The position numbers and the translations under genes were made by a program. From assembly GCA_049297695.1 (NCBI GenBank), contig JBAQUT010000021.1, positions 583 through 64,582 on the forward strand: a DNA stretch of 64,000 nt, written 5' to 3'. The notes under the pieces are model-generated. The model searched no databases. It saw only the letters and a program-made list of their open reading frames with translations, and was not told the DNA's origin. Source of the DNA: Alphaproteobacteria bacterium. GTDB taxonomy: Bacteria; Pseudomonadota; Alphaproteobacteria; UBA2136; UBA6156. Positions 2,100 through 39,397 of the stretch are shown here, piece by piece (position 1 is the first letter of the stretch; every line of letters starts with the position of its first letter).

Positions 2100-2849
2100 T
2101 CAGGCGGTTTGCGGAACAGATAACGGTTGTTGAGTAACCGTGCTCTGCTCGGTTTGGCTGGGCGAACCCAAGGTATCTCCCGCCATAAAGTGCCACAAGG
2201 CCTGCTCGGCTTCGGCCCAAGCGCCGCGGGAAAGGGCTTGCGAAACCACACCGTGCACCATGCACAGTTTGGCGGCTTGGGTGGCATCCGCCCAGCGGCG
2301 GCGGCGGGCAGGGGTGTCTAATATGGCAAGGCAATCGGTGATCATGGCATTCAGCGGGTTGCCCGTAAGTTCGGCCATGTGCACCAGCCAGCGTTGCTCC
2401 AACGTCAGATTATCTTCAGCCGTATGGCTGGGGGAAGGGGCGTGCCGCGCCAGGCTTACAAGGGTGTTGGGAGGCACATGGGCCAAATGCCGTACTACGT
2501 GGCGTTGCACCATCACGCGGAAAGGAAGAACGTGCGTATGGGCCACATTGTGACCACGGCATACGGCTACCATGTCCATCATCCATTGGCGGGGGTCGGG
2601 CGTGCGGATAAAACTGCCGCGCCCAGGCGTTACATCCAGCAATCCTTTGGTGCGGAGCATCTGGATGGCTTCCCGCAGCGTGGTACGGGATACTTTGTAG
2701 TGTTGGCACAGCACCGCCTCGGTGGGCAGTTTGTCGCCGGGTTTTAGGGTTTCATCAGTAATACGTTTTTGAATATCATCGGCAATGAGCGTGCTGCGGC
2801 GGTTGCGGGAAACAAGCGGAGTAGAAGCAAAAGCAAACATATGAAGCAA
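2100..2849 (-). CDS. GntR-family transcriptional regulator (FadR/FCD subfamily)
   Basis: N-terminal winged-HTH (LPTEAVLCQHYKVSRTTLREAIQML) followed by an FCD-like helical domain. 249 aa. Confidence 0.8.
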   Translation of the reverse strand: MLHMFAFASTPLVSRNRRSTLIADDIQKRITDETLKPGDKLPTEAVLCQHYKVSRTTLREAIQMLRTKGLLDVTPGRGSFIRTPDPRQWMMDMVAVCRGHNVAHTHVLPFRVMVQRHVVRHLAHVPPNTLVSLARHAPSPSHTAEDNLTLEQRWLVHMAELTGNPLNAMITDCLAILDTPARRRRWADATQAAKLCMVHGVVSQALSRGAWAEAEQALWHFMAGDTLGSPSQTEQSTVTQQPLSVPQTA

Positions 2850-2909
2850 TCTTTCTTATTGGTTGTAAGCTTATCATACAATACAACTTATGATTGTAAA
2901 GTAAAGATT

Positions 2910-2929
2910 AAAAACCCCCAGGAAGGGGG
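2910..2929 (-). terminator. Rho-independent terminator downstream of ugd
   Basis: Hairpin cccccaggaaggggg, preceded on the plus strand by an A5 run, which is a T5 run on the minus strand, just after the ugd stop. Confidence 0.5.
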
Positions 2930-3011
2930 TGTGGTAATTGGGATAAAATTAATTTATATCAAATAAATAGAATGTTTTTAGCGTCATGAGGCATCCGGGA
3001 GTGTCATGATG

Positions 3012-4349
3012 CTAGGCATGTTGGCGCGGACGACCCAAACCGACGTAAGATATGCCCGAAGCCGCCACCGTGGCAGGGTCGTACAGGTTGCGCAGGTCAA
3101 TCAGCAGGGGGGTTTTGAGGCGTGTCTTCAGGGAATCCAAATCCAACCCACGGAAGTCCACCCATTCGGTGAGAATCACGGCGGCATCGGCGTGGGCTAC
3201 AGCATTCTCCGTGTTGGCCACATAGGCAAGGTGAGGCGAAGTTGGCATCAAGCGTTGGGCATGGGGCATAGCCTGGGGGTCGAAGGCTTTGATGGTAGCA
3301 CCAGCTTTGATAAGGGCGGGGATGATCGTCAGGCTGCTGGCATCCCGCATGTCATCGGTGTTGGCTTTAAAGGCCAAACCCAGCACGGCAATGGTTTTGC
3401 CACGCACGTTGCCGCCCATGGTTTTGATAATCATGTCGGCCACGTCGGCTTTAATCTGCTCGTTGCGGGCAATGGTGGTTTCCACCAAGCCTAGCGTAAC
3501 GCCATGGTCGCGGGCAGTTTTGGCCAACGCGTGGGTATCTTTGGGGAAGCAACTGCCCCCGTACCCTGGCCCGGGTTGCAAAAAGCGCGGGGCGATGCGG
3601 CTATCCAGCCCCAACCCTTTCGAGATACTCAAAATATCGGCGCCCACGGTATCGCACAACGCAATCAGCTCGTTAATAAAGGTAATCTTGGTGGCTAAAA
3701 AAGCGTTGGCGGCATATTTAATCAGCTCGCTGCTGGCGCGGTTGGTAACATGCAAGGGGGCGCCTTGGTCGGTCAGGGGTTTGTACAACGCCCGCAACAT
3801 GGCCTCGGCGCGGGGGCTTTCCACACCTACCACCACGCGGTCGGGCTTTAAAAAATCCCCCACGGCCTCGCCTTCCCGCAAAAATTCGGGGTTGCTTGCC
3901 ACGTCAAAATCCGCCGTTGGGTTGGTGGTTTTGATAATCGCCTCCACCTTGGCGCCCGTACCCACGGGTACGGTGCTTTTGGTCACAATCAGCGTGTAAC
4001 CGTTCAAATGTTTGGCCACATCGCGGGTGGCGGCTTCCACGTACTGCAAGTCGGCGCTGCCGTCTTCGTCTTGCGGGGTACCCACGCCAATAAACACGGC
4101 GTCGGCATGTGGCACGGTGTCGGCTAAATTGGTGGAAAAATGCAACCGCCCCGCCGCCACGTTGCGCTTCACCATCTCTTCCAAACCGGGTTCGTAAATG
4201 GGGATGATACCTTTATCCCGCAGGTTGGCAATCTTGGCGGCATCCACATCCACACAGGTCACGTTAAAGCCAATTTCGGCAAAGCAGGTGCCACTGACAA
4301 GGCCTACATAGCCGGTACCAATCATGGTGAGGTTGCGGGGGGTGTTCAT
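3012..4349 (-). CDS. ugd: UDP-glucose 6-dehydrogenase
   Basis: 445 aa. N-terminal Rossmann motif MIGTGYVGLVSG. Catalytic Cys region GGSCFPKD. UDPG/GDP-mannose dehydrogenase family. Confidence 0.9.
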   Translation of the reverse strand: MNTPRNLTMIGTGYVGLVSGTCFAEIGFNVTCVDVDAAKIANLRDKGIIPIYEPGLEEMVKRNVAAGRLHFSTNLADTVPHADAVFIGVGTPQDEDGSADLQYVEAATRDVAKHLNGYTLIVTKSTVPVGTGAKVEAIIKTTNPTADFDVASNPEFLREGEAVGDFLKPDRVVVGVESPRAEAMLRALYKPLTDQGAPLHVTNRASSELIKYAANAFLATKITFINELIALCDTVGADILSISKGLGLDSRIAPRFLQPGPGYGGSCFPKDTHALAKTARDHGVTLGLVETTIARNEQIKADVADMIIKTMGGNVRGKTIAVLGLAFKANTDDMRDASSLTIIPALIKAGATIKAFDPQAMPHAQRLMPTSPHLAYVANTENAVAHADAAVILTEWVDFRGLDLDSLKTRLKTPLLIDLRNLYDPATVAASGISYVGLGRPRQHA

Positions 4350-4441: not shown

Positions 4442-4458
4442 TGGCAGGGGAGACAGGA
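4442..4458. repeat. Island att direct repeat (distal copy) tggcaggggagacagga
   Basis: Perfect 17-bp match to the 3-prime end of tRNA-Trp at 15112-15128. The GC/AT composition also shifts at this point. Confidence 0.65.
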
Positions 4459-4657
4459 TGGCCGTATCCCCTACTGCATTTAGTTATTTCAATACCTTAT
4501 ACTTCAATCACTAAGCGACTGCGTAACAAAACTTATAAAGGTTGCGTCACAATCTGGCAAGATCATTTCTTGGTTGCAAATGTGAATCCTTATATAGGAC
4601 TCTAACTCAAGGGAAAAAACCTACCTGACGAAAAACATCCACCAACTTGACGAAAAA

Positions 4658-5029
4658 TCAACGGGTGAGAGGTAGGGCTGTAAACCATGCCCCGTCTTGG
4701 TGATAACGGGCGACATGCGCTTGCCATGCTTCGGGGGTTTTGAAGCGTTGATGAATCAATCGGTGGCAGCGTTGGCAAAGAATATACGGGGCCAGCACGC
4801 TGTAGTCTTCGGAGTGGTAACAGAGGTTTTGACGGGTACGGCATATCTCGCAAGTGCCTGTGCTGGGGGGAGGCATCAAGCCCATCTCTATGGCCAGCTT
4901 GACCGCTTGCCATACTTTAACCCGCTGGTCATGAGTAAAGCCATTGTAGGCTTTTAGTGGGGGCCATTTCCAAACGGGAATAGGCAGGCCCCGTGCTGTG
5001 GCTTGGTGAAAAATGTCGTCAATATCCAT
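4658..5029 (-). CDS. Small Cys-rich protein with CxxC...CxxCHxxxH signature (possible HNH-type zinc-finger nuclease)
   Basis: 123 aa. CEIC...CYHSED...LCQRCHRLIH resembles the C-terminal His-Me finger/HNH motif. Island-borne. Confidence 0.35.
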   Translation of the reverse strand: MDIDDIFHQATARGLPIPVWKWPPLKAYNGFTHDQRVKVWQAVKLAIEMGLMPPPSTGTCEICRTRQNLCYHSEDYSVLAPYILCQRCHRLIHQRFKTPEAWQAHVARYHQDGAWFTALPLTR

Positions 5030-5370
5030 TACTGTCTCACCACCCTCAGGAACTCAGGCGATTGGAAAAACGCCTTCACCTTGCTGCATGAGTCAGGGCT
5101 TTCGCCTGCCATCTGGGCCTTCATGTTCATGCTCACGCCTTGCATGAAAATGGGCAGGTAGGTTTTTTGGTCGCTGGATTTAGGCGGAAAATGCCTGTCC
5201 AGCCACGTACCGATTTTCTGGGCGGAGGTGTCGGTATCATGGGCGCAGCCGATGCTACGGCCCAGCATTACGGCAAAGGTGGTCATGGTATCAATCTCGT
5301 GCTCGATAGCCGCCCAGCTGAGGGGCATTGCGAGGGTGAGAATCAAAACGGCTGAGAGGGTGGTTTTCAT
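5029..5370 (-). CDS. Small secreted hypothetical protein
   Basis: 113 aa. Clear signal peptide (MKTTLSAVLILTLAMPLSWA). Island-borne. Confidence 0.4.
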   Translation of the reverse strand: MKTTLSAVLILTLAMPLSWAAIEHEIDTMTTFAVMLGRSIGCAHDTDTSAQKIGTWLDRHFPPKSSDQKTYLPIFMQGVSMNMKAQMAGESPDSCSKVKAFFQSPEFLRVVRQ

Positions 5371-5383
5371 GGCGGTGCCTTTC

Positions 5384-5509
5384 TTAAGCCCAAATCATCC
5401 AACCGATACCAACACCAAGGGCCATGCCATACAGCACCATGGCGGCGTAGACGATAACCATCTCGGAACGGTTGGCGGGTTCAACGTGGGGTGGGGGTTG
5501 GTTGGGCAT
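5384..5509 (-). CDS. 41-aa hydrophobic mini-protein (MPNQPPPHVEPANRSEMVIVYAAMVLYGMALGVGIGWMIWA)
   Basis: ATG..TAA frame found by eye; not in the ORF track (<60 aa). Single predicted TM helix. Speculative. Confidence 0.2.
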   Translation of the reverse strand: MPNQPPPHVEPANRSEMVIVYAAMVLYGMALGVGIGWMIWA

Positions 5510-5781
5510 GGGGGTTGTCCTTTGCGGGTTGAACAAAAAGCCACCCGATAAAAGGTGGCTGGGTGTTCTTAACCGTCAAAGACAACGGCGTGGTGCTTTT
5601 CAGCTTACGCCTTGGACAGCACACCACCACCCAGCCATAAGGGCTGCGTGGGCTTGCGCCCAAACAGAAAACGCACCTGTTGTGGAGGTGCCTGCCAGTC
5701 TATGAGGGGTTAAGAGCCCCAGAACGTCTTACCGTTCCAACCATAATCTAATATGTCCAACGGGATATGGGAAGGGCAAAG

Positions 5782-6156
5782 TTACTTGGTGGCCTGTTTG
5801 GCATTCTTGGCCTCAAGTCTTTCACGGCGCTTGGCTTCCCGTTCCGCTTTCCGCACCGCCCTGAACATGGCGTCAATCTCCTTGCGGGCATCCCAATATA
5901 GGAAGGCCGCTTCGGGGTCGGGTTGGTACTGACACACCTTCATTGCCATTTGGCGCTCGGCATATTGTTTGGCGGTTAGGCTTCGGGCGTGCAGGCGGGG
6001 TGGTTTGTTCTTCCGTACCTCGCGGGCAAGTTGAAGGTTTCTCCGCCGTGCCTCGTTCATGGCCTCGGTGTTGGTGAAGTTTTTACGGCCTGATTTTGAG
6101 CCGTTGGAAGTTTGTTTCTTACTCTGCTTTATCGGGGTGCCGTTTTGGTTATCCAT
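5782..6156 (-). CDS. Basic (Arg/Lys-rich) hypothetical protein
   Basis: 124 aa. Strongly basic N- and C-termini (KKQTSNGSKSGRK...REAKRRERLEAKNAKQATK). Island-borne. Possibly DNA-binding. Confidence 0.4.
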   Translation of the reverse strand: MDNQNGTPIKQSKKQTSNGSKSGRKNFTNTEAMNEARRRNLQLAREVRKNKPPRLHARSLTAKQYAERQMAMKVCQYQPDPEAAFLYWDARKEIDAMFRAVRKAEREAKRRERLEAKNAKQATK

Positions 6157-6200
6157 ATGAAAGTGCTTTCATTTTGTAGAAGTATAAAAATACATACATT

Positions 6201-7916
6201 TTAATCTTCAAACTTTTGAGAACGAATCTCTTTCATCTCTCGCTCAAACTTAGCAAGACGTTCCTTATCGGCACGAATCTCATCCTCCGACATACCCTCG
6301 TACCACCACTCCTCAGGCTCCGATGGGTTAGTTCGGTTAGGTTGGAGGGCGTTGCCCTGCGGCGTTACCGAATGCGCGTGTGTTTGCGTGGGGTTTCGGT
6401 AGGTGTGCCGAGTGGGAGTTCCCCCGACAGCTTCCCACATGGTGCAAACGGCTTCCAAATCGGCGGCGACCTCATTCGGGTTACCAAACCATTTACGCGC
6501 CCTATAAGCCTTAACAAACTTGTCAAAGTACTTCATCATTGCGTCAAAATCTTCGGTTTGGGCCTTAGCAGTGGCTATCTTTTTTTCATCCCTCTTAGCT
6601 GCCTCCCTCATTTTGCGGGAGAAGTTTTGCTCGCTGTACTTACGGTTGGCGATTTTCTCTGCCTCAGCCTCAGGTACGCCATGAGCGATAAGGTGGTACT
6701 TGTATCGCTCAAAATCATCACCCGAAGTTGCTGCAAGAAATTTGTTAATAAACATCTTCGGATTCATAAACTTGTCATACAAAGGTTCGGCTAAAGCACA
6801 AGCGAACCCTAAAGACGGGAGTGTCGGCATATTGTGCAAGCGTTTGAACGAAGCCTTTTGCAAACCAGCCCAGCTGTAGGCTATCCAAGTGGTAAACGCC
6901 AAAGCCTTATCACGGGGTAGTTCCATACGGCGTAAGGTTTTAACCCAGCCATGCAAGTGGCCAACCTTAGGAGCAAAATAGGTTTCGTAAGGGAATGCCC
7001 GCGCATAGCCCTCTTGCCATGCGGCAAGCACTGCATCGTTCAGCCTACCGTTGCTTAAAGTCTTTTCCCTGTGAGTAGCATCTACAGCCTTTTGAGTACT
7101 TTCGGGTAATGGTTTGGTTTTGATTTCTTCCTCAACAATCTCACCCTCTTCATTCACGGAGTATGTGATGATGCCGTTCTTGTGCTTGGATTCATAAATA
7201 GCCCTTTCGGTAAACCCTGAAAAATCCTGTGGTCTGTTCTGATGAGCCATATACCCCTCTCCCCCGTTCAAGGGGGAGGTAGGGGGATATAAATCAACTG
7301 GAAGATTAACAACTGGTAATAGGATGGCAGGTTTTGGTGTAGGACAGGTGGAAGGTTCTGTAACCTCTTTGGAAGAAATGGCTAACTTGCATCTTTTTCT
7401 CATTCTTGCCGTTAAACATTTGTTTTTATTAAAGGAGCTGAGATAGATAGCATCTGTAACCTTTTGTAGGGGAACAGACCTACTGGACGTAATCTCTGTC
7501 ACGTGAGGCTTATCGGAGTGTGCGTCTGGTTCAGGATAAACTGGAAAGCTGGCGATAAAAATGTTAGCTCCCTGAAAACCATTAGCCTTACGTGTAGGGC
7601 TCACCTGAATCCAACCAGCATTCTTGACTGCTTCGACTCTAGCAAATGCACTCCTGCGCGTAATACCAAGTTCTTTGGCGATTGTCTGCATCTTGATGCG
7701 GCCCGATGCTGGACCAAAGTCCATATATTTGTAGATAGCCAACAAGCACTCTTTTTGCTTTTGCGTACGGCGTGAGCGCATAAAAGCGTTACGCCAATCC
7801 ATAATCTTTGCGGGGTTTTTACGGGATATAATCTTACGCTTCTTACCAGTAAAGCTGGCGTTGATAGCGTGTCTGTAAATCTCAGATACAGAACTGTGTT
7901 TGATGGTCTCTAGCAT
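6201..7916 (-). CDS. HTH-containing protein, putative island replication initiator / regulatory protein
   Basis: 571 aa. N-terminal winged-HTH-like segment (MQTIAKELGITRRSAFARVEAVKNAGWIQV) like plasmid RepA/replication-protein HTH domains. Large C-terminal domain of unknown function. Confidence 0.4.
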   Translation of the reverse strand: MLETIKHSSVSEIYRHAINASFTGKKRKIISRKNPAKIMDWRNAFMRSRRTQKQKECLLAIYKYMDFGPASGRIKMQTIAKELGITRRSAFARVEAVKNAGWIQVSPTRKANGFQGANIFIASFPVYPEPDAHSDKPHVTEITSSRSVPLQKVTDAIYLSSFNKNKCLTARMRKRCKLAISSKEVTEPSTCPTPKPAILLPVVNLPVDLYPPTSPLNGGEGYMAHQNRPQDFSGFTERAIYESKHKNGIITYSVNEEGEIVEEEIKTKPLPESTQKAVDATHREKTLSNGRLNDAVLAAWQEGYARAFPYETYFAPKVGHLHGWVKTLRRMELPRDKALAFTTWIAYSWAGLQKASFKRLHNMPTLPSLGFACALAEPLYDKFMNPKMFINKFLAATSGDDFERYKYHLIAHGVPEAEAEKIANRKYSEQNFSRKMREAAKRDEKKIATAKAQTEDFDAMMKYFDKFVKAYRARKWFGNPNEVAADLEAVCTMWEAVGGTPTRHTYRNPTQTHAHSVTPQGNALQPNRTNPSEPEEWWYEGMSEDEIRADKERLAKFEREMKEIRSQKFED

Positions 7917-8223
7917 ACGATTTCCCCATTTGCTGTTAGTATGCCCTATGATGGCTTCTGGTACTTTGGGTGCTAAATGATTAGCTTAAATAATGGATTC
8001 ACTTGGGAATCTCGGAATAAGAAGAGCACGTCGCTCCACGTACTCATGTTGCTATATCAACACTAGAAAGTCAACATAAACCTCCGAAATATCTAAATAC
8101 TTTTCAATATGTTGTGCCCGACTTTAAGGAGTTCAATCAGACTCCCAGAACATCAGCGGCATGGTAGGTGTAGTGTGAGGGGGTGGGGTAATCCCAGTTT
8201 TTCTGAAAGGTGGGGGGGGTAGG

Positions 8224-8778
8224 TCAGGCCCGTAGGTAGTTGTACAGGGTCTCGCGGCTGATGTTGAAGGCGCGGGCGAGTGCTGCTTTGCTCTCCCCGC
8301 TGGCGATACGGGTGCGGAGGTCTTGGGCTTGGGCATCCGAGAGTTTGAAGGCCCGCCCTTTGTACACGCCTTTCTTTTTGGCGATGGCGATACCTTCCCG
8401 CTGGCGTTCAAGAATGAGTGACCGTTCAAACTGCGCAACTGAGCCTAACAGATTTAGCAGCAGGTTTGCCATGGGACTGTCTTCGCCCGTGAACGTCAAG
8501 CGTTCCTTAACGAACTCAACGGCCACGCCCCGCTTGGTGAGTGTGTCCACGATGGTGCGGAGGTTACCGAGATTGCGCGCCAAGCGGTCAAGGCTGTGCA
8601 CCACCAGCGTATCGCCCTGCCGCACATAGGCAAGTGCCTCGGTAAGGGCGGGGCGGTCGGTGGTGGCACCGCTGCATTTATCATTGAACGTACGCTCAAA
8701 GGTCATGCCTTCTAACTGGCGCTCGGTGTTTTGGTCGGTGGTGCTTACTCTGACGTATGCGATGCGTTGGCCTGTCAT
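8224..8778 (-). CDS. Serine recombinase (resolvase/invertase family, Hin/Gin/Pin-like)
   Basis: 184 aa. Catalytic N-terminus MTGQRIAYVRVSTTDQ with the conserved Ser. C-terminal HTH (ALARAFNISRETLYNYL). Confidence 0.9.
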   Translation of the reverse strand: MTGQRIAYVRVSTTDQNTERQLEGMTFERTFNDKCSGATTDRPALTEALAYVRQGDTLVVHSLDRLARNLGNLRTIVDTLTKRGVAVEFVKERLTFTGEDSPMANLLLNLLGSVAQFERSLILERQREGIAIAKKKGVYKGRAFKLSDAQAQDLRTRIASGESKAALARAFNISRETLYNYLRA

Positions 8779-8790
8779 GTCTATCTCCTT

Positions 8791-8812
8791 GTTAAGATGT
8801 GTCTATCTTAAC
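8791..8812. promoter_or_regulatory. Palindrome gttaagat-N6-atcttaac immediately upstream of the serine recombinase gene (candidate res/operator site)
   Basis: Perfect 8-bp inverted arms with a 6-bp spacer, 13 bp upstream of the recombinase start codon. Confidence 0.35.
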
Positions 8813-8951
8813 TCTTAGACTAGCGTAGCCATATGTCATGTAAAGTGCTTGGGTAACCCTATTTTGACGGTTTGGGCGTCTTTTTTGACTGTGGTGTTGG
8901 GGTATAGGTCAAGTGGGCGGTAGCAAAAAGAGGCTATGGCGAATCAGTCTA

Positions 8952-11114
8952 TTATCTCTCTAAGCTCTGCCGTGCTTGTATATCCCGTCCTTTATCAATC
9001 TCTTCCCGAATCATATCCTTAAGACCACCTAACCATACCCATTCCGTTAGATTGGGATAGTTACGTTCGGTTGCCGTGGCAAGGAATGGGCGTGCGGCCA
9101 TAAAGACAGCTTCGCGCTGGGAGCGTTCACGCCAGTTGAACCCATAAAGCCGCTCATCTCCCTGTAAAGCATCAGGGCGGAATCTGGTACGGTCAATGCG
9201 CCCCAGCTCTAATTCCTTGGCTTTTTCTTTCCAATCTTTTTTACCCGTTATCCATGGAATGTAGGACTGGATAGCCTCGCCTTCCAATGGATGAGGTGCC
9301 CGACGCCATAATCCCTGAGCTTGCCGAAACGTAAAGCCCATTAGAGAGCCGTTCAACATATTTTCACACCATTCAACCGTTACTACTTTGGCCCAATCAT
9401 CCTTGGCAAAGTTGGGGGCGTGAATCACGTTAACGAGCTGCTGACGAAGCTCATCAGGAGCTTTATCAACATCAGCAAGTGGCTGACTTAAGTATTTTTC
9501 AATGGTAGCTTCGTCCACAAGTGCGACAATATGGCTTCCGTTGTACAGGCATGCACTCCCATAACCATGAACGCAGTGCCCTTGAATATCGGCTTGTTTT
9601 CTTAGCTCCAGCTCATCAAGAAGCGGGAACATCCACACCGCTTGACCGTCTTTATGGAATCGTCTGGGTGGTGCTATGGGGAGCCACATAGTCGGCGGGA
9701 CATACGTTTCATTTTCTCCATTACCCGTCCGAATAGCCTCTAACCTGTTACGGAACATGCGAAGTTGTTCTGGAATATGATAACGATGGCTAGCCTCCAA
9801 AACATCCCACATGCCGTATTCAGTCAGCATTTTTCCAAGAAGCTTATTTGTCAGCGTCTCCCAACCTACTGCTGGAATCTCACGCGCATGCAGGGAAGAG
9901 AGTACATTCACCTTAGGGCCAACAAGCCGCCCTAAAATACTGCTTTTCCAATCTTCAATATCCCTGACGTTTTCAGCGGTACCGAGGGCTTGCATCTTCG
10001 TTAAAACCTGTTGCCAACGGGACTTAGGGTCTTTGACGGCGGTGGCGGTTTCTTTCCAGCACTCACTCCAATCTTTGCCCGTCACATCAACAAAGGACTT
10101 GATATAACGCATGACAGAGGTAAATGCTGACCATTCTGCTGCTGTGGTTGGATACCATGTGGGGTCTATACCATTCAGAACATGGGCATAAAGACGTAGG
10201 TCATCGTGAGATAATCCTGCTGGAACGGGGCCACGTAATCCTAAAAACTGAACCGCTGTTTTACTGGGTGGCTCTTTGACAGTTTGCGCAAGAAGTCGGG
10301 CTACACCATCAAGCACCGATTTACCTTCATCCACGTCTTGCGAGACTTGAGGGAGAATGTGGACAAGGTGTGGTAAGGCGGTGCCCGCTTCCAAACGGTG
10401 TCGCCCGTAGGCAAGCCAACCGTAAATATCCCTGTTATCCAAGCCCTCATCCGTTAAAAATCGGACAATCTCAGGGTTTAGGCATTCCACAAATGCTTGG
10501 AACAAGGCACTTTTACGAACGGTTTCAACCTGCTTAAAAACATTAACAAGGTCTTCTTTCCCAGCAGCAAAGAGCCTCCTATCGCCATGTATGGTGCCTG
10601 CGGCGGCATCATGGCTACGCATATGCTCCTCTAACCATGTGACACCATACTCAACTAACCGACCAATATGGTTGTGCGTTGGGGCGTAGTGAGCGGTGGT
10701 GGAATGTTCCTGAACGAACAAGCCAAGTGCTGTTTGATGTTGTCCTGTGGCGTAAGCTCGCCCCATCACATCAAATCGCCCTTCAGCGATTTCTTCAACC
10801 AAGCCACGAAGTTCTGACCGATTCACTTTTACGCGCCCTGCATGGATTTTGCCATTTTGAGCTTCAACCAAAACTTCTATACGGTTTGGCCGTTTGCCTT
10901 GTGAGTACGTAAGACTTTGCGCCAAGACTGTCCGATGAGGTTTACGGTCTCCGTATGACACCAGAATATGGGGGGCTTTATTATCCCATGCGGTATCAAG
11001 TTTCAGGGCACGAACTTTATCGTCAGGTAAAAAAATGCCTCGGGATGCCAACCATGCCGTAACCCCTTTTTCCAGAAGGTTTGTTACAGGAGGGCGTACG
11101 ATTTTGTTTGGCAT
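8952..11114 (-). CDS. Large hypothetical protein, possible PcfJ-like domain (conserved GHC motif)
   Basis: 720 aa. ...ADIQGHCVHGYGSACLYNGSHIVALVD... carries a GHC motif described for the PcfJ family. No other recognisable catalytic motif. Island cargo. Confidence 0.45.
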   Translation of the reverse strand: MPNKIVRPPVTNLLEKGVTAWLASRGIFLPDDKVRALKLDTAWDNKAPHILVSYGDRKPHRTVLAQSLTYSQGKRPNRIEVLVEAQNGKIHAGRVKVNRSELRGLVEEIAEGRFDVMGRAYATGQHQTALGLFVQEHSTTAHYAPTHNHIGRLVEYGVTWLEEHMRSHDAAAGTIHGDRRLFAAGKEDLVNVFKQVETVRKSALFQAFVECLNPEIVRFLTDEGLDNRDIYGWLAYGRHRLEAGTALPHLVHILPQVSQDVDEGKSVLDGVARLLAQTVKEPPSKTAVQFLGLRGPVPAGLSHDDLRLYAHVLNGIDPTWYPTTAAEWSAFTSVMRYIKSFVDVTGKDWSECWKETATAVKDPKSRWQQVLTKMQALGTAENVRDIEDWKSSILGRLVGPKVNVLSSLHAREIPAVGWETLTNKLLGKMLTEYGMWDVLEASHRYHIPEQLRMFRNRLEAIRTGNGENETYVPPTMWLPIAPPRRFHKDGQAVWMFPLLDELELRKQADIQGHCVHGYGSACLYNGSHIVALVDEATIEKYLSQPLADVDKAPDELRQQLVNVIHAPNFAKDDWAKVVTVEWCENMLNGSLMGFTFRQAQGLWRRAPHPLEGEAIQSYIPWITGKKDWKEKAKELELGRIDRTRFRPDALQGDERLYGFNWRERSQREAVFMAARPFLATATERNYPNLTEWVWLGGLKDMIREEIDKGRDIQARQSLER

Positions 11115-11123
11115 GGAAAAATC

Positions 11124-11726
11124 CTATAGGGTTGCGTTTCTGTCGGGCAACTCAACCCCAAAAGTTTGAGCAACAACCTGCCCTACCTCAGCAGGGTTCA
11201 AGGCCGTACTGGCTGAGCGGCAAGGTACTTGGAAGAACATGTCCTGCTCCCATTCCCCACAATACGCAGCACAAGCCTGATACATACGGCTGGCAGGGGT
11301 ATAATCAGAGTTATTTAGTTGTGGCACCAGATACACTTCTTCTCGTTCAGCCTCCATGCCTCGCCTGTGTGGCAAAGCCTTCATCATTCGCAACGCGTTG
11401 GAGCTATTCAAAAAAGTAGTGATGTCAACAGGGTCGCCTTCTGCACGAACAGCCTGATACTGACGCAAAAAGGCCGTTACCGCCTTGGCTCCACCTAAGG
11501 GGACAAACACACGGGCTAAAACTCCATTTACAGCATTTTCTGCCTCGGCAAACTCCAAAAACTCCATCAGGGAAAGAGGGTTGATATGCCCTACCTGTGC
11601 CGTGTCCATCATGGACGCCAAGCCATCGGGGTCGTTGTAACGGTTAGCCAAAGGTGCGAAACGGGCCAACACGAACCTGTGTGGCATACCTTGAAGTTCA
11701 ATCAGGCGAATCGGTAGCATGTACAC
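11124..11726 (-). CDS. Hypothetical protein (island cargo)
   Basis: 200 aa. 9-bp gap to the downstream 720-aa gene. No recognisable motifs. Confidence 0.5.
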   Translation of the reverse strand: MYMLPIRLIELQGMPHRFVLARFAPLANRYNDPDGLASMMDTAQVGHINPLSLMEFLEFAEAENAVNGVLARVFVPLGGAKAVTAFLRQYQAVRAEGDPVDITTFLNSSNALRMMKALPHRRGMEAEREEVYLVPQLNNSDYTPASRMYQACAAYCGEWEQDMFFQVPCRSASTALNPAEVGQVVAQTFGVELPDRNATL

Positions 11727-11796
11727 CTCTCCTATTTGAGCGTTGCATACAACAATATCGCTAATAAAACAAGAGGAAATCTATTTTAATACTACA

Positions 11797-12591
11797 CTAA
11801 ATCCCCAACCCCATCTGGCCCGTTTGGGGAAGCTGAACAATCCCGTTGATAAGCCACGTATCTGGCCAGCGAGAATGGGTACCCATGGCAAAAAGAAGGC
11901 CCTTGGCAGGTAGCTCGTGCCCCCAGCGTTCCTTCATCATTTCAAGGGTTTTTTCTTTACCGTACAATCTTTCCCATTGGAAATAGGTTGCCTCGGTTTC
12001 CCAATCTTGGCAGGTGCCTTCACGTTCACCGTCAGCAATGATATATTTGTATTTGAAGCGGTAAGGGCATGGTTTGTAGGGCAGTACAGGTTTCATGAAA
12101 AGGTCAGCTTGTCTGGAATAAAGGTCAAACTTTTCCCGTTCCTCCTCATACTCAGCGGGAGATTTCTCCTCCACGATAAACCCCTTAATGGTCGGGCGAA
12201 TGAAGGCAAAACTTCGGCCAGCCTCCCGTTCTGCTACAAGGCTTGTTTTAACCATCGGGTCTATCAAGCCAAATCGCTGCGCTTCGGGCAGAGTTCCAAC
12301 AACGGCGAGAGATTGGTGCTCTACACGGCGACTTTCAAGGCGGGCATCGTCTTTGGGGGTTCGCCATTGATATTTCACAACATCCCAACGGCGGAACTGC
12401 TGGGCGGCGTCAAGACTACGGAAAGTAATCGGGTAAAGCCGTACCCAATGGCCATCACGGGTGATAGCAGCTGTACAAACGGTTTCACCATGCTTATCAC
12501 CCAACTGTGGGGCGGCTTTGACCATGATAATGGCCTCGTCCGTTTGAGGGTCAAGCAGCGAGGTGGTTTGGGATGATAAATGGTTGGCCAT
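11797..12591 (-). CDS. Hypothetical protein (island cargo)
   Basis: ORF 11797-12648. Start chosen at MANHLSS (12591), which overlaps the stop of the upstream DUF488 gene by 41 nt. No recognisable motifs. Confidence 0.45.
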   Translation of the reverse strand: MANHLSSQTTSLLDPQTDEAIIMVKAAPQLGDKHGETVCTAAITRDGHWVRLYPITFRSLDAAQQFRRWDVVKYQWRTPKDDARLESRRVEHQSLAVVGTLPEAQRFGLIDPMVKTSLVAEREAGRSFAFIRPTIKGFIVEEKSPAEYEEEREKFDLYSRQADLFMKPVLPYKPCPYRFKYKYIIADGEREGTCQDWETEATYFQWERLYGKEKTLEMMKERWGHELPAKGLLFAMGTHSRWPDTWLINGIVQLPQTGQMGLGI

Positions 12592-13069
12592 GCAACGAGA
12601 TTCCTGTATCAACAGTAAGATTATGCACTTGCATGCCCGTAAGTTCAAGGAGGTGGTTAGCTACAATGCTACGGTGGCATTCGCAATGATTATGTTCAAA
12701 ACACATAAGGCAGACGGGAGCTTTGCGGGCCATTTCGGCAGCAACATGTAAATCTGTCTGGGCGTATGGAGTTGTCATGTGTTGGCCGAAAATACGCCGA
12801 AACAGGCGATAATCTCCTGCACGGGCAGCCTCACGGCCCGCCTTTGGGTCTCCTAACCCGCGCAAGTGAACATAACGAATACCATTAGCCTCCAATGTGG
12901 CCTTCAAGATAGATTTTGAAAAGCCTTTCTTGCGGGAGAGAGGCATCTCACGAACATCCAACAGGGTATGTATCCCCGCATCTTGTAGGGTCAGCACAAA
13001 ATCCTCCACACGGGAGCCTTCGTAACCAATGGTGTAAAGCGTTTTTTCTAATGCCATGGCCAACAGCAT
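12551..13069 (-). CDS. DUF488-like protein with C-terminal Cys/His cluster
   Basis: 172 aa. N-terminus LYTIGYEGSRVEDFVLTLQDAGIHTLLDVREMPLSRKKGFSK matches the DUF488 signature. C-terminus CLMCFEHNHCECH suggests metal binding. Confidence 0.55.
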   Translation of the reverse strand: MLLAMALEKTLYTIGYEGSRVEDFVLTLQDAGIHTLLDVREMPLSRKKGFSKSILKATLEANGIRYVHLRGLGDPKAGREAARAGDYRLFRRIFGQHMTTPYAQTDLHVAAEMARKAPVCLMCFEHNHCECHRSIVANHLLELTGMQVHNLTVDTGISLHGQPFIIPNHLAA

Positions 13070-13195
13070 ACCCTAAACCACCCGTCATGGCATCCGTTTT
13101 CCTGATTCTATGCCGTGGGGTGTAGCACAAACTTACAACGCCATTTTTTCTTGACCAAAAAATGATACTAAGTATTTGAAACGAAATGATTTCGT

Positions 13196-15007
13196 TTAGG
13201 ATTTCTTATAGGGTTTGAGGTGTTTTGTCACGGCTTCAGGGTATGTGAGTTTACAGATGGCCTCGTGCAGTTTTTCCAGTGATATGTCATCGGTGTATCC
13301 TTCCGTTACCGAACCTGCGGTACTGTGGCCTAGGAGAGCTTGCACGGTATCCATGGGGATGCCACATTCACGGCGGCATGTGCTGGTAAACGTATGGCGA
13401 AAACTATGGAACACCAGCTTTCTGCGTTTAAGTTCAATGCCCTCAAGGTACGTACGAAAAAGTCTTGTAAAGTTTTGGGAATACGTGCCATCCCATCCAC
13501 GCTCAATCTCTTCAAAAATACGCTTGCGGCCTTGTTTGGTCATATCGGAAACAAAACGGGTTATACCCAGTTCAATCAGTTTGGGGTGGATGGGTATTAC
13601 GCGTTTGCTTGATGCACTTTTTATGCTCTTACCCTCAATACCGCCCTCATCATCGTTGACATCAAAATACCATATATCGTTAGCTTGCTTGATGTCTCCG
13701 ACAGCCATCTGGCAAATCTCACCTGACCGCATCCCCGTGTATAGGCTAATCAAAGGCACCCAATACAGTGCGTCCATGGTGATGGTATCGCCCTTTTTAT
13801 AACGGTATTGGTAGATTCCGTCTGGTTGGTGGCCTGTGTATTGAGGGGTGTTGAAAAACTTAACTAAATCGTCGGCTTTATAGGATTCACGTTTTTCATT
13901 CGATTTGGCTTTATCCATAGCCTCAAAAGTTGGCAAAACTTGACTGGCGGTACGCTCGCTGGTCATAAGCCACTTTTTAAAACTACGTAGGTTAACGTTA
14001 TATTTATCTTGGTTAGCAGGTGAAAAAGTGGGGAGCTTTTTGCCTGCCTCTAAAATCTCCGCCATGGGTTTGCCAGCGAGTTGTTTAAGTTTGGTGTAGT
14101 TTTTGGGCACTTGGCCAAGGTTGCTGGAAAACTCCATCAAGTGTTTGTTGGTAAACTGGTTCACTTGTTTGATGTTCGGGAACATCTCACGGAACAGGGT
14201 AAAGCAGGATTCAATATCCAGTACCGTTTTTATGTTTTTTCCTTTGTTTCGCTTCTCGGTGGCGTAGGCCTTCATGGCCTCCTCCAAGGTTTCAGACGTA
14301 TCATGCGCCTTGGCAGGTGGCGCAATGGTAGGCTGGGTATCAGGTGGAAGGACGTAGCGGGGTAAATGAATCTCGCCGTTGCTCAGGGTTTCTGGCATGG
14401 GGTGGATAATGTCCGTATCAATCCCTTGGAATACGGCATCATTTATTTTGGCCTCGGCATAATCGCCTTTGGCCTTGGCAAGGTAGATGCGGGCAGCTTC
14501 AATCTCGGCTTGGGTGAACAGCCTGTCCAGATAGTTTTCAAGCTCGCGCTCGCTGTCTACAAGTTTGGTGAGAATGAGTCTTTTCAGGTAGGAGCGCTGC
14601 TGGGTGTCGGGGGGCGTTTTCTGACGCAGCTTTTCGCGTTTGGCGGTGAGAGATTCCACCGTCTCGGCAACGTCTTCGGCGAGTTGTTCAGTATCAAACA
14701 CTTCAAGCCACATGTTACGTTCAGCTAACGTATCGGCAAAATGCTCACGCGCAATACGCTTGAGGGCCTTAACCACGTCTGGGTTGGAGAGCTGAAGGTC
14801 TACGTGAAGAAGTTGGGCCATGGCGATTTGGATCTTTGCTACAATGACTTTAGCAGCCCGACCATCGGTTGTCTTGAGGGAAATACATAAACTGATGCGG
14901 CGGGGGCATCCCTGCCGTTTGGGCAGCATGGCACGAAAGTAAAACTTCTGCCCGCGCTGGAAAAGGTACGGGGTTTTGGTGGCCTGTAACTGATAAACGT
15001 CTCCCAT
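13196..15007 (-). CDS. int: Tyrosine-type site-specific integrase
   Basis: C-terminal catalytic region with R...HSFRHTF...Y motifs. Start set at MGDVYQ (15005-15007) because the longer ORF runs into the tRNA. Adjacent to tRNA-Trp. Confidence 0.85.
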   Translation of the reverse strand: MGDVYQLQATKTPYLFQRGQKFYFRAMLPKRQGCPRRISLCISLKTTDGRAAKVIVAKIQIAMAQLLHVDLQLSNPDVVKALKRIAREHFADTLAERNMWLEVFDTEQLAEDVAETVESLTAKREKLRQKTPPDTQQRSYLKRLILTKLVDSERELENYLDRLFTQAEIEAARIYLAKAKGDYAEAKINDAVFQGIDTDIIHPMPETLSNGEIHLPRYVLPPDTQPTIAPPAKAHDTSETLEEAMKAYATEKRNKGKNIKTVLDIESCFTLFREMFPNIKQVNQFTNKHLMEFSSNLGQVPKNYTKLKQLAGKPMAEILEAGKKLPTFSPANQDKYNVNLRSFKKWLMTSERTASQVLPTFEAMDKAKSNEKRESYKADDLVKFFNTPQYTGHQPDGIYQYRYKKGDTITMDALYWVPLISLYTGMRSGEICQMAVGDIKQANDIWYFDVNDDEGGIEGKSIKSASSKRVIPIHPKLIELGITRFVSDMTKQGRKRIFEEIERGWDGTYSQNFTRLFRTYLEGIELKRRKLVFHSFRHTFTSTCRRECGIPMDTVQALLGHSTAGSVTEGYTDDISLEKLHEAICKLTYPEAVTKHLKPYKKS

Positions 15008-15111
15008 CCCCCCTCCTGCGTCACAAATCTTGCGCCGCCTGCGCCACAAAATCGTGGTGTTTGGGTGATTGGAGTAAAGTATCTTAATAGTTTGAATAAT
15101 ATAACAAATAT

Positions 15112-15187
15112 CTGGCAGGGGAGACAGGACTCGAACCTGCAACCAAAGGTTTTGGAGACCTCTACTCTACCAATTGAGCCACTCCCC
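15112..15187 (-). tRNA. trnW: tRNA-Trp (anticodon CCA)
   Basis: 76 nt. Acceptor stem AGGGGAG/CTCCCCT. Anticodon loop CTCCAAA. T-loop TTCGAGT. Discriminator G plus an encoded CCA. Confidence 0.85.
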
Positions 15188-15366
15188 TGTGGATGTGGGT
15201 ATGCCACGGTTTGGGGGTGGGGGTCAAGATACCCTGTGGCCTGTATGGAGTGCCTGCAAAAGCATCTGATTTTATACAGTTTAACCCAGCAAAACCGCCA
15301 CACGGGGTGCCTGTATTCGGGGCAGCGGCCTCGCCCCTTGCGCAAGGCTGGCGTAAGGTGGGGCCC

Positions 15367-16617
15367 ATGAGATTGCGCCACCACTTTGCCGCATGGGCGT
15401 TTGCCGTGGTGCTGGCGCTGCCTGTGCACGCGGCGGATTGGGGCCAAATGGCCATCGTCTCCAGCACGCTGGGGGTGGATGCAGGGCGGCTGTGCGTGGG
15501 AGCCAGTCAAGCAGGTAGGCCCTCCGACATGGGCTGCCCCACCTACGCGCCGTTTGTGAGCAGCGGAGGCCTTTTAACGGGAAGTACAGCGAGTTTTGGC
15601 GGGCTTACGGTGACGGGTTCGGCCAGTATGACCACCGTATCGGCCACCAACATTTCCGCCACCTATGTGGATGCCACCCGTAACGGCACAGTCAGCGCCA
15701 CCTACGGGTATTTTAGCCAGATTAGCGGAAGTATCCCCGCCAGCATGGTGACGGGGATGGATGCCGCGGCGCGTGGCGACCGTATCAGCACCACGGGTGT
15801 GGCCGATGGCAGTGGGCTGGCCATGGTGGCCACCGATGGGAACGTGATTAGCTTCACCACCAGCGGCGTGAACACCGCGTACTTGGATAGCAGCGGGCGC
15901 TACATTGGTCCTGGTGTGAGCATCACCACGTACAATGGTGTGAGCAGCACGAACGGGTATTTTAGCGGGAATGTGGGCATTGGGACGACGGCGCCGACGA
16001 AAGAAGGTTTGACGATTTCTGGTACCAGCACGCCGGGGTTGCGTGTTCAGGCGAGTAACGCGTGGGATTTCTTTACGTCGGCAGTAGGTGGTCGGCTTGG
16101 AATTTATGATGCCACGAATTCAAGAGAACTGATGACATTCAGGACATCTGGCAAAGTTGGTGTGTCAAACACGTCGCCAGTTGCACAATTTGATGTAACC
16201 GGCACCATTAGCGCCAGCGATATTGTACAGGTGGGGAGCACCACCACGATTGCCTGTGGCAGCGGGTTGGAGGGCGGTATCCGCTACACCAACGTGAGCG
16301 ATACCTTGCAGATTTGTACCAGCGGCGGATGGAAGAGTTTGGTGAGCGGCACGGTAGCTAATACGACCACAGGTACGGGCACAACCAACTATGTGGCCCG
16401 TTGGACAGGTACGAGCACGTTGGGGACAGGTATTTTATATGATGATGCCACCAATGTAGGGGTTGGAACTTCAACACCTACGGCCCGTTTGGAAGTTTCC
16501 GGTACCTTCCGCGTGGCCCGCAACACCACCAGCACGGACACGTGCGACGATGGATCGCTGGTGGGCACCATGCGCGCCAACCCCACCACGGGGATGATGG
16601 AGCTGTGCGCCCCGTAA
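15367..16617 (+). CDS. Secreted Gly/Ser/Thr-rich repeat protein (tail-fibre-like / adhesin-like)
   Basis: Signal peptide MRLRHHFAAWAFAVVLALPVHAADW. Repeated G-x-S/T and VGIGTTAP-type motifs typical of fibrous beta-structured proteins. C-terminal Cys pairs. Confidence 0.55.
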   Translation: MRLRHHFAAWAFAVVLALPVHAADWGQMAIVSSTLGVDAGRLCVGASQAGRPSDMGCPTYAPFVSSGGLLTGSTASFGGLTVTGSASMTTVSATNISATYVDATRNGTVSATYGYFSQISGSIPASMVTGMDAAARGDRISTTGVADGSGLAMVATDGNVISFTTSGVNTAYLDSSGRYIGPGVSITTYNGVSSTNGYFSGNVGIGTTAPTKEGLTISGTSTPGLRVQASNAWDFFTSAVGGRLGIYDATNSRELMTFRTSGKVGVSNTSPVAQFDVTGTISASDIVQVGSTTTIACGSGLEGGIRYTNVSDTLQICTSGGWKSLVSGTVANTTTGTGTTNYVARWTGTSTLGTGILYDDATNVGVGTSTPTARLEVSGTFRVARNTTSTDTCDDGSLVGTMRANPTTGMMELCAP

Positions 16618-39307: not shown

Positions 39308-39397
39308 GGAGGAGTGGCTGAGTGGTCGAAAGCGGCGGTCTCGAAAACCGTTAGGGGCGCAAGCTCCTCGCAGGTTCAAATCCTGTCTCCTCCGCCA
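39308..39397 (+). tRNA. tRNA-Ser (anticodon CGA)
   Basis: 90 nt. Acceptor stem GGAGGAG/CTCCTCC. Anticodon loop CTCGAAA. Long variable arm. Encoded CCA. Confidence 0.85.

Follow-up and report, generated by a model that had tools for sequence, protein, structure and literature searches.

The integration of mobile DNA into the 3′ end of a tRNA gene by a tyrosine integrase is a textbook mechanism, and the islands it leaves are a well known kind of element. In tRNA islands with lambda/P4-type integrases, the integrase gene lies beside an intact tRNA gene and the far end of the island carries a repeat of the tRNA 3′ terminus; tRNA-Trp is documented as one such site in Shewanella, for the island CGI48 (PMC8978831). 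Here we describe a locus of this layout in a 64,000-nucleotide stretch of DNA (the window) from contig JBAQUT010000021.1 of the alphaproteobacterial assembly GCA_049297695.1. A segment of ~10.67 kb, bounded by position 4442 of the window and by a tRNA-Trp gene, is very probably a non-conjugative, non-viral integrative genomic island that its own tyrosine integrase placed at the tRNA-Trp 3′ end. It shares with the CGI48 type a foreign composition, accessory cargo and candidate arm-type sites around the core, and differs from it in its divergent DUF6538 integrase, in having no recognisable excisionase and in a cargo that is almost wholly orphan.

The sequence TGGCAGGGGAGACAGGA is present exactly twice in the window, at 4442–4458 and at 15,113–15,129. 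Because ARAGORN and Rfam (67.4 bits) place an intact tRNA-Trp(CCA) gene at 15,113–15,188 on the minus strand, the right copy is the final 17 nucleotides (nt) of the tRNA including CCA, and is taken as the proximal att core. The left copy, the distal att core, repeats these 17 nt without the tRNA body. ARAGORN and Rfam, including a permissive Rfam scan, detected no tRNA or tRNA fragment there, and the left 17-mer is thus not part of a second tRNA gene, a possibility that a first-pass annotation of this DNA had raised. Identity between the copies breaks off sharply at both edges of the repeat, and the DNA between them measures 10,654 bp. The chance expectation for such a 17-mer match was 0 in dinucleotide-preserving shuffles, even when 3 mismatches were allowed. 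No degenerate att copy was found within the island, which is therefore one element and not a tandem array. The proposal of the first-pass annotation, 17-bp direct repeats around an island of ~10.7 kb in tRNA-Trp, is upheld, with the exact repeat being the tRNA 3′ end; its position for the second copy, 15112–15128, was off by one.

The composition of the segment is also foreign. Its GC content is 0.493, compared with 0.558 for the rest of the window and 0.540 for the lowest window of the same size elsewhere, in line with the GC drop inside the repeats that had been noted earlier. The tetranucleotide L1 distance of the island is 0.286, which is 2.5 times the maximum found elsewhere (0.112), and the composition boundaries coincide with the 17-bp repeats. 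The flanks are housekeeping chromosome, with genes for UDP-glucose dehydrogenase (Ugd), a GntR regulator, PGK, DnaE, YebC, PBP5 and lytic transglycosylases. It could still be supposed that nothing was inserted here, the 17-mer being a chance match or a tRNA-derived relic in a region of ancestral low-GC chromosome; in its favour, the searches gave no empty site and no relative closer than 73% in Ugd. We regard this as hardly credible given the zero expectation for the 17-mer, the coincidence of the repeat with both the tRNA 3′ end and the composition boundaries, the integrase gene at the tRNA-proximal end and the lack of any tRNA at the left copy.

The gene next to the tRNA encodes a tyrosine integrase of 603 amino acids (aa), at 13,196–15,007 on the minus strand, with matches to PF00589 (5.8e-14) and phrog_1 (9e-30). 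Its ATG, at 15,007 and preceded by AGGAGG, is separated from the tRNA end by 105 bp, so that the integrase adjoins the tRNA as the first-pass annotation had stated. The catalytic set read from the motifs is complete, consisting of R427, K468, H534-x-x-R537, H561 and Y571; the motifs located were GMRSGE, SKRVIPIH, HSFRHT, LLGHS and TEGY. The closest homologues among 5.8 billion proteins are only ~30–37% identical, and nearly all of them combine DUF6538 with Phage_integrase. The nearest relatives of ~30% identity are found in unrelated contexts with no tRNA nearby, and a literature search on the DUF6538 integrase architecture yielded nothing in the library covered.

In lambda-like attP sites, arm-type integrase sites flank the core symmetrically. 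A motif match gave two candidate arm-type sites at each end of the island, all four on the plus strand. The left pair, at 4520–4529 (TGCGTAACAA) and 4543–4552 (TGCGTCACAA), is 61 and 84 bp inside the left core; the right pair, at 15,017–15,026 (TGCGTCACAA) and 15,040–15,049 (TGCGCCACAA), is 63 and 86 bp inside the right core and falls between the integrase start and the tRNA. Spacing within the two pairs is identical at 23 bp. The pattern TGCGYMACAA occurs 5 times in the 64-kb window compared with 1.13 expected, and 4 of the 5 occurrences are at the island ends, the pattern having been defined post hoc after inspection of those ends. In the attP of a circular element the two pairs would lie on either side of the core, and they are probably arm-type sites of the integrase.

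We propose that integration proceeded as follows. A circular form carrying attP met the chromosomal attB, which is the tRNA-Trp 3′ end, and the DUF6538-type tyrosine integrase of the island recombined the two. Strands were exchanged inside the 17-nt block of identity, which extends from the T-arm to CCA, and the outcome was an intact tRNA gene beside int and an orphan 17-bp copy at the far end. The repeats, the intact tRNA and integrase, the foreign composition, the gene content and the lack of structural or transfer genes are direct observations. From these sequence features we infer the specificity of the integrase for these att sites, and likewise the function of the arm sites, a present-day competence for excision and any replication after excision.

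All 11 island genes are on the minus strand, ten open reading frames (ORFs) of 113–720 aa and one of 41 aa, in agreement with the unidirectional order of 11 ORFs reported by the first-pass annotation. Plus-strand ORFs in the island are antisense shadows of genes with homology support. The cargo comprises an accessory operon of the mobile genetic element (MGE) type, in which DUF488 and PDC-M19B proteins are joined by a 198-aa orphan and a PcfJ-like protein; a resolvase of the TnpR type, probably acquired separately, and a winged-helix protein apparently borrowed from a phage replication module; and an sRNA-Xcc1-like RNA with a few small proteins.

Scans of the island proteins against Pfam, NCBIfam and PHROGs gave no match to capsid, tail, portal, terminase or lysis families, which bears out the earlier judgement that the island is not a prophage. 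The same three libraries contained no match to a primase-helicase (pri-rep), to a small terminase (terS), to cpm, ppi, rpp or other capsid-redirecting genes, or, even at E values up to 5 for the small proteins, to an AlpA/Stl-type regulator or Xis. Relaxase, coupling protein (T4CP) and type IV secretion system (T4SS) families were likewise without a match in Pfam and NCBIfam. No iterons or tandem repeats that could mark an origin were present in the island. Megablast with the whole island found no match in 72,556 plasmids (PLSDB) or in phages, INPHARED and IMG/VR gave no DNA or protein match to the island, and scans of viral contigs were likewise negative for the integrase, for the 571-aa protein described below, for its two-sequence alignment and for the M19B protein.

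The first cargo after int is a pair of overlapping genes. One encodes a DUF488 protein of 172 aa (12,551–13,069, minus strand; PF04343, 3e-29) and the other its partner of 264 aa (11,797–12,591, minus strand; phrog_25907, 5.6e-31). Together they are adjacent matches to the two components of the PADLOC system PDC-M19, the former to PDC-M19A (PDLC04505, 1e-34) and the latter to PDC-M19B (PDLC04508, 2.5e-35). The island A protein differs from that system in that its match to the best A profile is confined to the C-terminal half (positions 148–289 of 294). The PDC systems are a set of 145 untested candidates, proposed on the basis of genes that lie within BREX, DISARM and type I restriction-modification loci (bioRxiv 10.1101/2024.01.29.577857), and a literature search on PDC-M19 gave no result. 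The DUF488–M19B pair is also found on plasmids of Azospirillum, Sulfitobacter and Rhizobium, and 18 of the 26 plasmids with an M19B homologue are typed as conjugative or mobilisable. On the Sulfitobacter plasmid NZ_CP136688.1 (5498–6738 of the extracted locus), the pair is located amid genes for DUF932, two RadC proteins, SSB, ParB-N and toxin-antitoxin components; on Rhizobium pRL8 (4971–6277 of its locus), it lies beside DUF3991-toprim and DUF1419 genes. These plasmid neighbourhoods in Sulfitobacter and pRL8 are leading-region-like. A defence role for DUF488–M19B is therefore not established, and there is a possibility, judged from gene context, that the pair is an establishment or anti-defence module rather than a defence system.

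Two further genes follow in the cassette. The first encodes the 198-aa orphan protein (11,124–11,720, minus strand), which was also called as a gene in contig L171 of an independent Logan assembly; it had no family match in any library scanned and no similarity to the gene beside a PcfJ-like homologue elsewhere. After a spacing of 9 bp comes a gene for a divergent PcfJ-like protein of 720 aa (8952–11,114, minus strand), assigned from its relatives and from structure comparison. It has no word-level homologue and no match to Pfam PcfJ (PF14284) at E≤0.01. HMMER found only 25 relatives among 1.84 billion representatives, 18 of which match PF14284, and an H513-C514-V-x-G-Y...C522 core is conserved in the alignment. 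The AlphaFold model of the protein is usable (predicted local distance difference test score (pLDDT) 77.7, predicted template modelling score (pTM) 0.64), and its top Foldseek matches in BFVD are PcfJ-like phage proteins.

These genes bear on a label given by the first-pass annotation, which likened the island to satellites of the kind of phage-inducible chromosomal islands (PICIs) or to integrative mobilisable elements (IMEs). Such labels address how the island moves between cells, a matter on which the reading as an integrative genomic island makes no claim. As an IME, the island would hijack a conjugative element whose relaxase acts on an unrecognised oriT, and the cassette from DUF488–M19B through the 198-aa protein to PcfJ would be a leading-region-like establishment or anti-defence module, entering the recipient first. 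Described IMEs such as the mobilisable genomic islands mobilised by SXT/R391 integrative and conjugative elements (ICEs) resemble it in being small, bounded by an integrase and devoid of a T4SS; the island, moreover, has genes (the DUF488–M19B pair and the PcfJ-like gene) that otherwise occur on conjugative plasmids. The leading-region-like settings of the Sulfitobacter and pRL8 pairs and the large share of conjugative or mobilisable plasmids among those with an M19B homologue favour this scenario; PcfJ is also named after a gene of the conjugative plasmid pCF10, and a TnpR-type resolvase could resolve multimers. Unlike an IME, however, the island has no relaxase match and no DNA similarity to the PLSDB plasmids, coupling protein and T4SS families are equally without a match, and plasmids encode essentially no homologues of the 571-aa and PcfJ-like proteins. 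We therefore think IME status distinctly unlikely; it keeps a minority weight because the DUF488–M19B pair occurs in leading-region-like plasmid neighbourhoods.

The 571-aa protein (6201–7916, minus strand) had been called Rep-like. This name is not borne out, since the protein has no family match and no Rep, primase or helicase domain in the libraries scanned, and any link to replication comes through its context. A marginal HTH_24 match covers residues 72–104, and in the AF2 model a winged helix-turn-helix (wHTH) at residues 52–123 is moderately confident while the rest is poor (pLDDT 45). The sole homologue, P0003 (46–48% identity), is encoded on a 49-kb phage-like contig, two genes upstream of a DnaB-like helicase (phrog_19, 5e-52) and PolA (phrog_17, 3e-125), in a replication module that also has a primase (phrog_47, 3e-30). 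tblastn against phages and plasmids gave no match for the 571-aa protein. Its N-terminal winged helix and sole homologue make it a candidate origin-binding or replication-associated protein, and the evidence supports a replication-module DNA-binding protein of phage origin, not a 'Rep', as its likely identity. The 49-kb contig itself (JBQVBP010107691.1; also in the Logan assembly of SRR34691375) has no tRNA in the 21.8 kb examined. Its PolA is 1135 aa long with UDG-like and faint Hint (intein) signals, and the replication module further holds a DEAD helicase and a large phrog_8638 ATPase.

At the distal end of the island, a 123-aa HNH-like zinc-finger protein is encoded at 4658–5029 on the minus strand. 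The CxxC...CxxCHxxxH motif ascribed to it by the first-pass annotation was confirmed in the translation (CEIC at 61–64, CQRCHRLIH at 85–93). The protein has no Pfam or PDB match, and weak matches to a phrog_2340 endonuclease (1e-4) and to the C-terminal Cys cluster of Cas4 (1.7e-3).

The winged-helix and HNH-like proteins, together with the PcfJ-like one, are among the reasons to consider a phage satellite, whether PICI-like or of a new family. A helper phage would induce excision and package the DNA in helper capsids; the 571-aa protein would bind an origin on the island and recruit the helper DnaB/PolA replisome, with the HNH-like protein possibly acting at a cos-type site. The island is like PICIs and other phage satellites (~10–15 kb) in its size of ~10.7 kb, its terminal int, the single orientation of its genes, its lack of capsid and tail genes and its possession of a protein related to one from a phage replication module. 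The position of the sole 571-aa homologue among DnaB-like helicase, PolA and primase genes, the frequency of PcfJ-like proteins in phages and the distal place of the HNH-like gene are consistent with the satellite scenario. On the other hand, the island differs from PICIs and phage satellites in having no AlpA/Stl, pri-rep, terS, cpm, ppi or capsid genes and no recognisable repeats as the mark of an origin. Searches of phage and viral collections were negative for both DNA and protein, the resemblance of the distal protein to HNH endonucleases is weak, and no helper prophage lies within the 64-kb window. A satellite is thus improbable in our view, with a minority weight that it owes to the wHTH relative in a phage replisome module and to the abundance of PcfJ-like proteins in phages. 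More speculatively, and with quite a low probability, the island could be the first member seen of a minimal satellite family, in which a helper-derived, origin-binding winged-helix initiator would be the only such gene carried; a phage of the PolA type would supply the replisome (DnaB, PolA and primase) and the capsids, and the DUF488–M19B/PcfJ-like cassette would serve in anti-defence or in competition between MGEs. The label of satellite, PICI-like or integrative-mobilisable element thus fits in integrase and size only, in an island with no regulator, primase-helicase, packaging gene, relaxase or origin-like repeats.

Between the PcfJ-like and 571-aa genes is the gene of a serine recombinase of 184 aa (8224–8778, minus strand). 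The label given to it earlier stands and can be narrowed to a resolvase of the Tn3/Tn21 TnpR type: it has Resolvase (4.8e-36) and HTH_7 domains and the YVRVSTTDQ motif with the catalytic serine, and is ~65% identical over its full length to TnpR, with tnpR genes at this level of identity on >5000 plasmids. It differs from Tn3/Tn21 in that no tnpA is found beside it and there are no terminal inverted repeats. Its GC content at third codon positions (GC3) is 0.70, which is host-like, compared with 0.44–0.54 for the neighbouring island genes. The resolvase is probably a separate, secondary acquisition, or a plasmid-style multimer resolvase. Directly upstream of the tnpR ribosome-binding site, within 8779–8951, is a palindrome with 8-bp arms, GTTAAGAT-n6-ATCTTAAC, a possible res subsite or operator; no full res site was identified. 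A role of the recombinase in an invertible segment was considered and dropped, given its TnpR type and the lack of convincing flanking inverted repeats. The one head-and-packaging hit of the PHROGs scan, between this resolvase and a terS profile (1.6e-3), was a spurious helix-turn-helix match.

The remaining features are found downstream of the 571-aa gene and upstream of the HNH-like gene or adjacent to them, all on the minus strand. A strongly basic protein of 124 aa is encoded at 5782–6156 (a gene call in Logan contig L172), a hydrophobic ORF of 41 aa with a single transmembrane-like segment at 5384–5509 (called in contig L173, an independent assembly), and a 113-aa protein with an N-terminal signal-peptide-like segment at 5029–5370 (also called in L173). 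The 113-aa and 124-aa proteins had no family match in the libraries scanned. An RNA of 88 nt resembling sRNA-Xcc1 (Rfam RF02221) is located at 5549–5636, followed by a hairpin like an intrinsic terminator at 5539–5560. The match covers the full model (1–87 of 87) with an intact 9-bp closing stem, and scores 37.8 bits compared with a gathering score of 53 (E 2.8e-5 to 1.2e-4). Homologues of sRNA-Xcc1 have been reported in integrons, genomic islands and APSE phages (PMC2996969, PMC12189769).

Next we consider the locus in relatives and metagenomes. In the metagenome-assembled genome (MAG) contig DIUO01000008.1 (Ugd 73% identical), tRNA-Trp and ugd are co-directional, 1.2 kb apart, and without the island. 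This layout would correspond to the arrangement expected at the window locus without its island, in a relative that is only 73% identical in Ugd and whose spacer has its own cargo. The spacer (2681–3908 of the locus) is AT-rich and contains a gene for an antitoxin with a SocA/Panacea domain (4.9e-20), followed by an ORF of 139 aa; the spacer probably represents a small toxin-antitoxin islet that occupies this tRNA-Trp site. In a second MAG contig, CAZROO010000010.1 (also Ugd 73%), a 3-kb segment of low GC (0.43–0.47, compared with ~0.60) at 6700–9900 of the locus abuts the 3′ end of a tRNA-Trp gene that differs from that of the window by one compensatory pair only. The segment opens with a truncated DUF6538-like ORF (8.6e-6), and also encodes a secreted protein of 758 aa whose TPR match is marginal and under the cut-off. 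The segment resembles a decayed island with the same type of integrase at the same tRNA. From these two relatives, tRNA-Trp appears to be a recurrent landing site in the lineage.

In metagenomes, the exact junction pattern had no match. Exact-protein look-ups with Ugd (at two alternative starts), with the 416-aa protein of the right flank and with the HNH-like protein gave no record either. The Logan assembly of SRR28011690 contains three fragments of the island, covering 8741–13,676, 5589–8623 and 4713–5618, which are 99.96–100% identical to it. Two of the contigs, L171 and L172, leave a gap of 117 bp (8624–8740) in the conserved N-terminal coding region of tnpR. L172 and L173 end within the sRNA-Xcc1-like element, with an overlap of 30 bp (5589–5618), which hints that this element is repeated in the metagenome.

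Several of these results weigh against the reading as an integrative genomic island. The host has no close relative in the collections, Ugd identity reaching 73% at best among 185,579 species genomes and 58% in the JGI metagenomes, and the tRNA–ugd locus is not stably syntenic because the tRNA-Trp of CAZROO010000010.1 is inverted relative to ugd. The SRR28011690 fragments are all internal to the island, covering neither a circular junction nor an empty site. The N-terminal DUF6538-like domain of the integrase matches PF20172 at 6e-5, which is under the Pfam cut-off, and the arm-site pattern carries the post hoc definition already mentioned. Family scans of the island found no excisionase. Finally, GC3 is a mosaic among the island genes, those of tnpR and of the 124-aa and 113-aa proteins being host-like, which may reflect either long residence or a composite history.

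Some of these points also favour a different history, in which the island descends from a larger phage, plasmid or ICE, has been stripped of the genes for transfer and regulation, and is now a fixed, decaying remnant that has ceased to excise. Neither an excisionase nor a regulator nor transfer genes were found, the GC3 mosaic suggests amelioration or secondary insertions, tnpR is an orphan without tnpA, and CAZROO010000010.1 has what looks like such a decayed remnant at the same tRNA. We consider this history unlikely, though credible enough to be kept in view. Against it, both 17-bp cores are perfect, none of the four arm-type motifs is missing, the integrase ORF runs to its full length and keeps every catalytic residue, and the large ORFs of the island are intact, tightly packed and co-directional. 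This state of the cores, the integrase and the ORFs argues for a recent or still-active element, and the integrative genomic island remains the reading that we prefer.

Outside the island, two tRNA-associated features were also noted. The sole other near-match to the 17-mer in the window, with 2 mismatches, is at 39,381–39,397, which is the 3′ end of a tRNA-Ser(CGA) gene (39,308–39,397, plus strand) that agrees with the att core at 15 of the 17 positions. There is no second island at this tRNA-Ser because the adjoining genes encode lytic transglycosylases (SLT_2, DPBB_1/SPOR) and not an integrase. On the 5′ side of tRNA-Trp, a gene at 15,193–16,617 (plus strand) encodes a Gly/Ser/Thr-rich protein of 416–474 aa whose start, MRLRHHFAAWAFAVVLALPVHA, resembles a signal peptide; it is without a Pfam match and is not conserved beside tRNA-Trp in either of the two MAG contigs.

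To specialists in mobile elements nothing here will be surprising, and the satellite label is without positive evidence. What is new is the membership, with a divergent integrase of the DUF6538 type, for which clean att cores and candidate arm sites are now available, and a set of near-orphan cargo proteins. Several of the latter are thereby placed in a mobile context, namely the PcfJ-like protein with its 25 relatives, the wHTH protein with its one relative and the 198-aa protein with no family match. The DUF488–M19B pair offers a reasonable small target for the question of defence versus anti-defence or establishment. The value of the locus is mainly one of annotation, and it flags tRNA-Trp as what looks like a recurrent insertion site in this poorly sampled alphaproteobacterial lineage.

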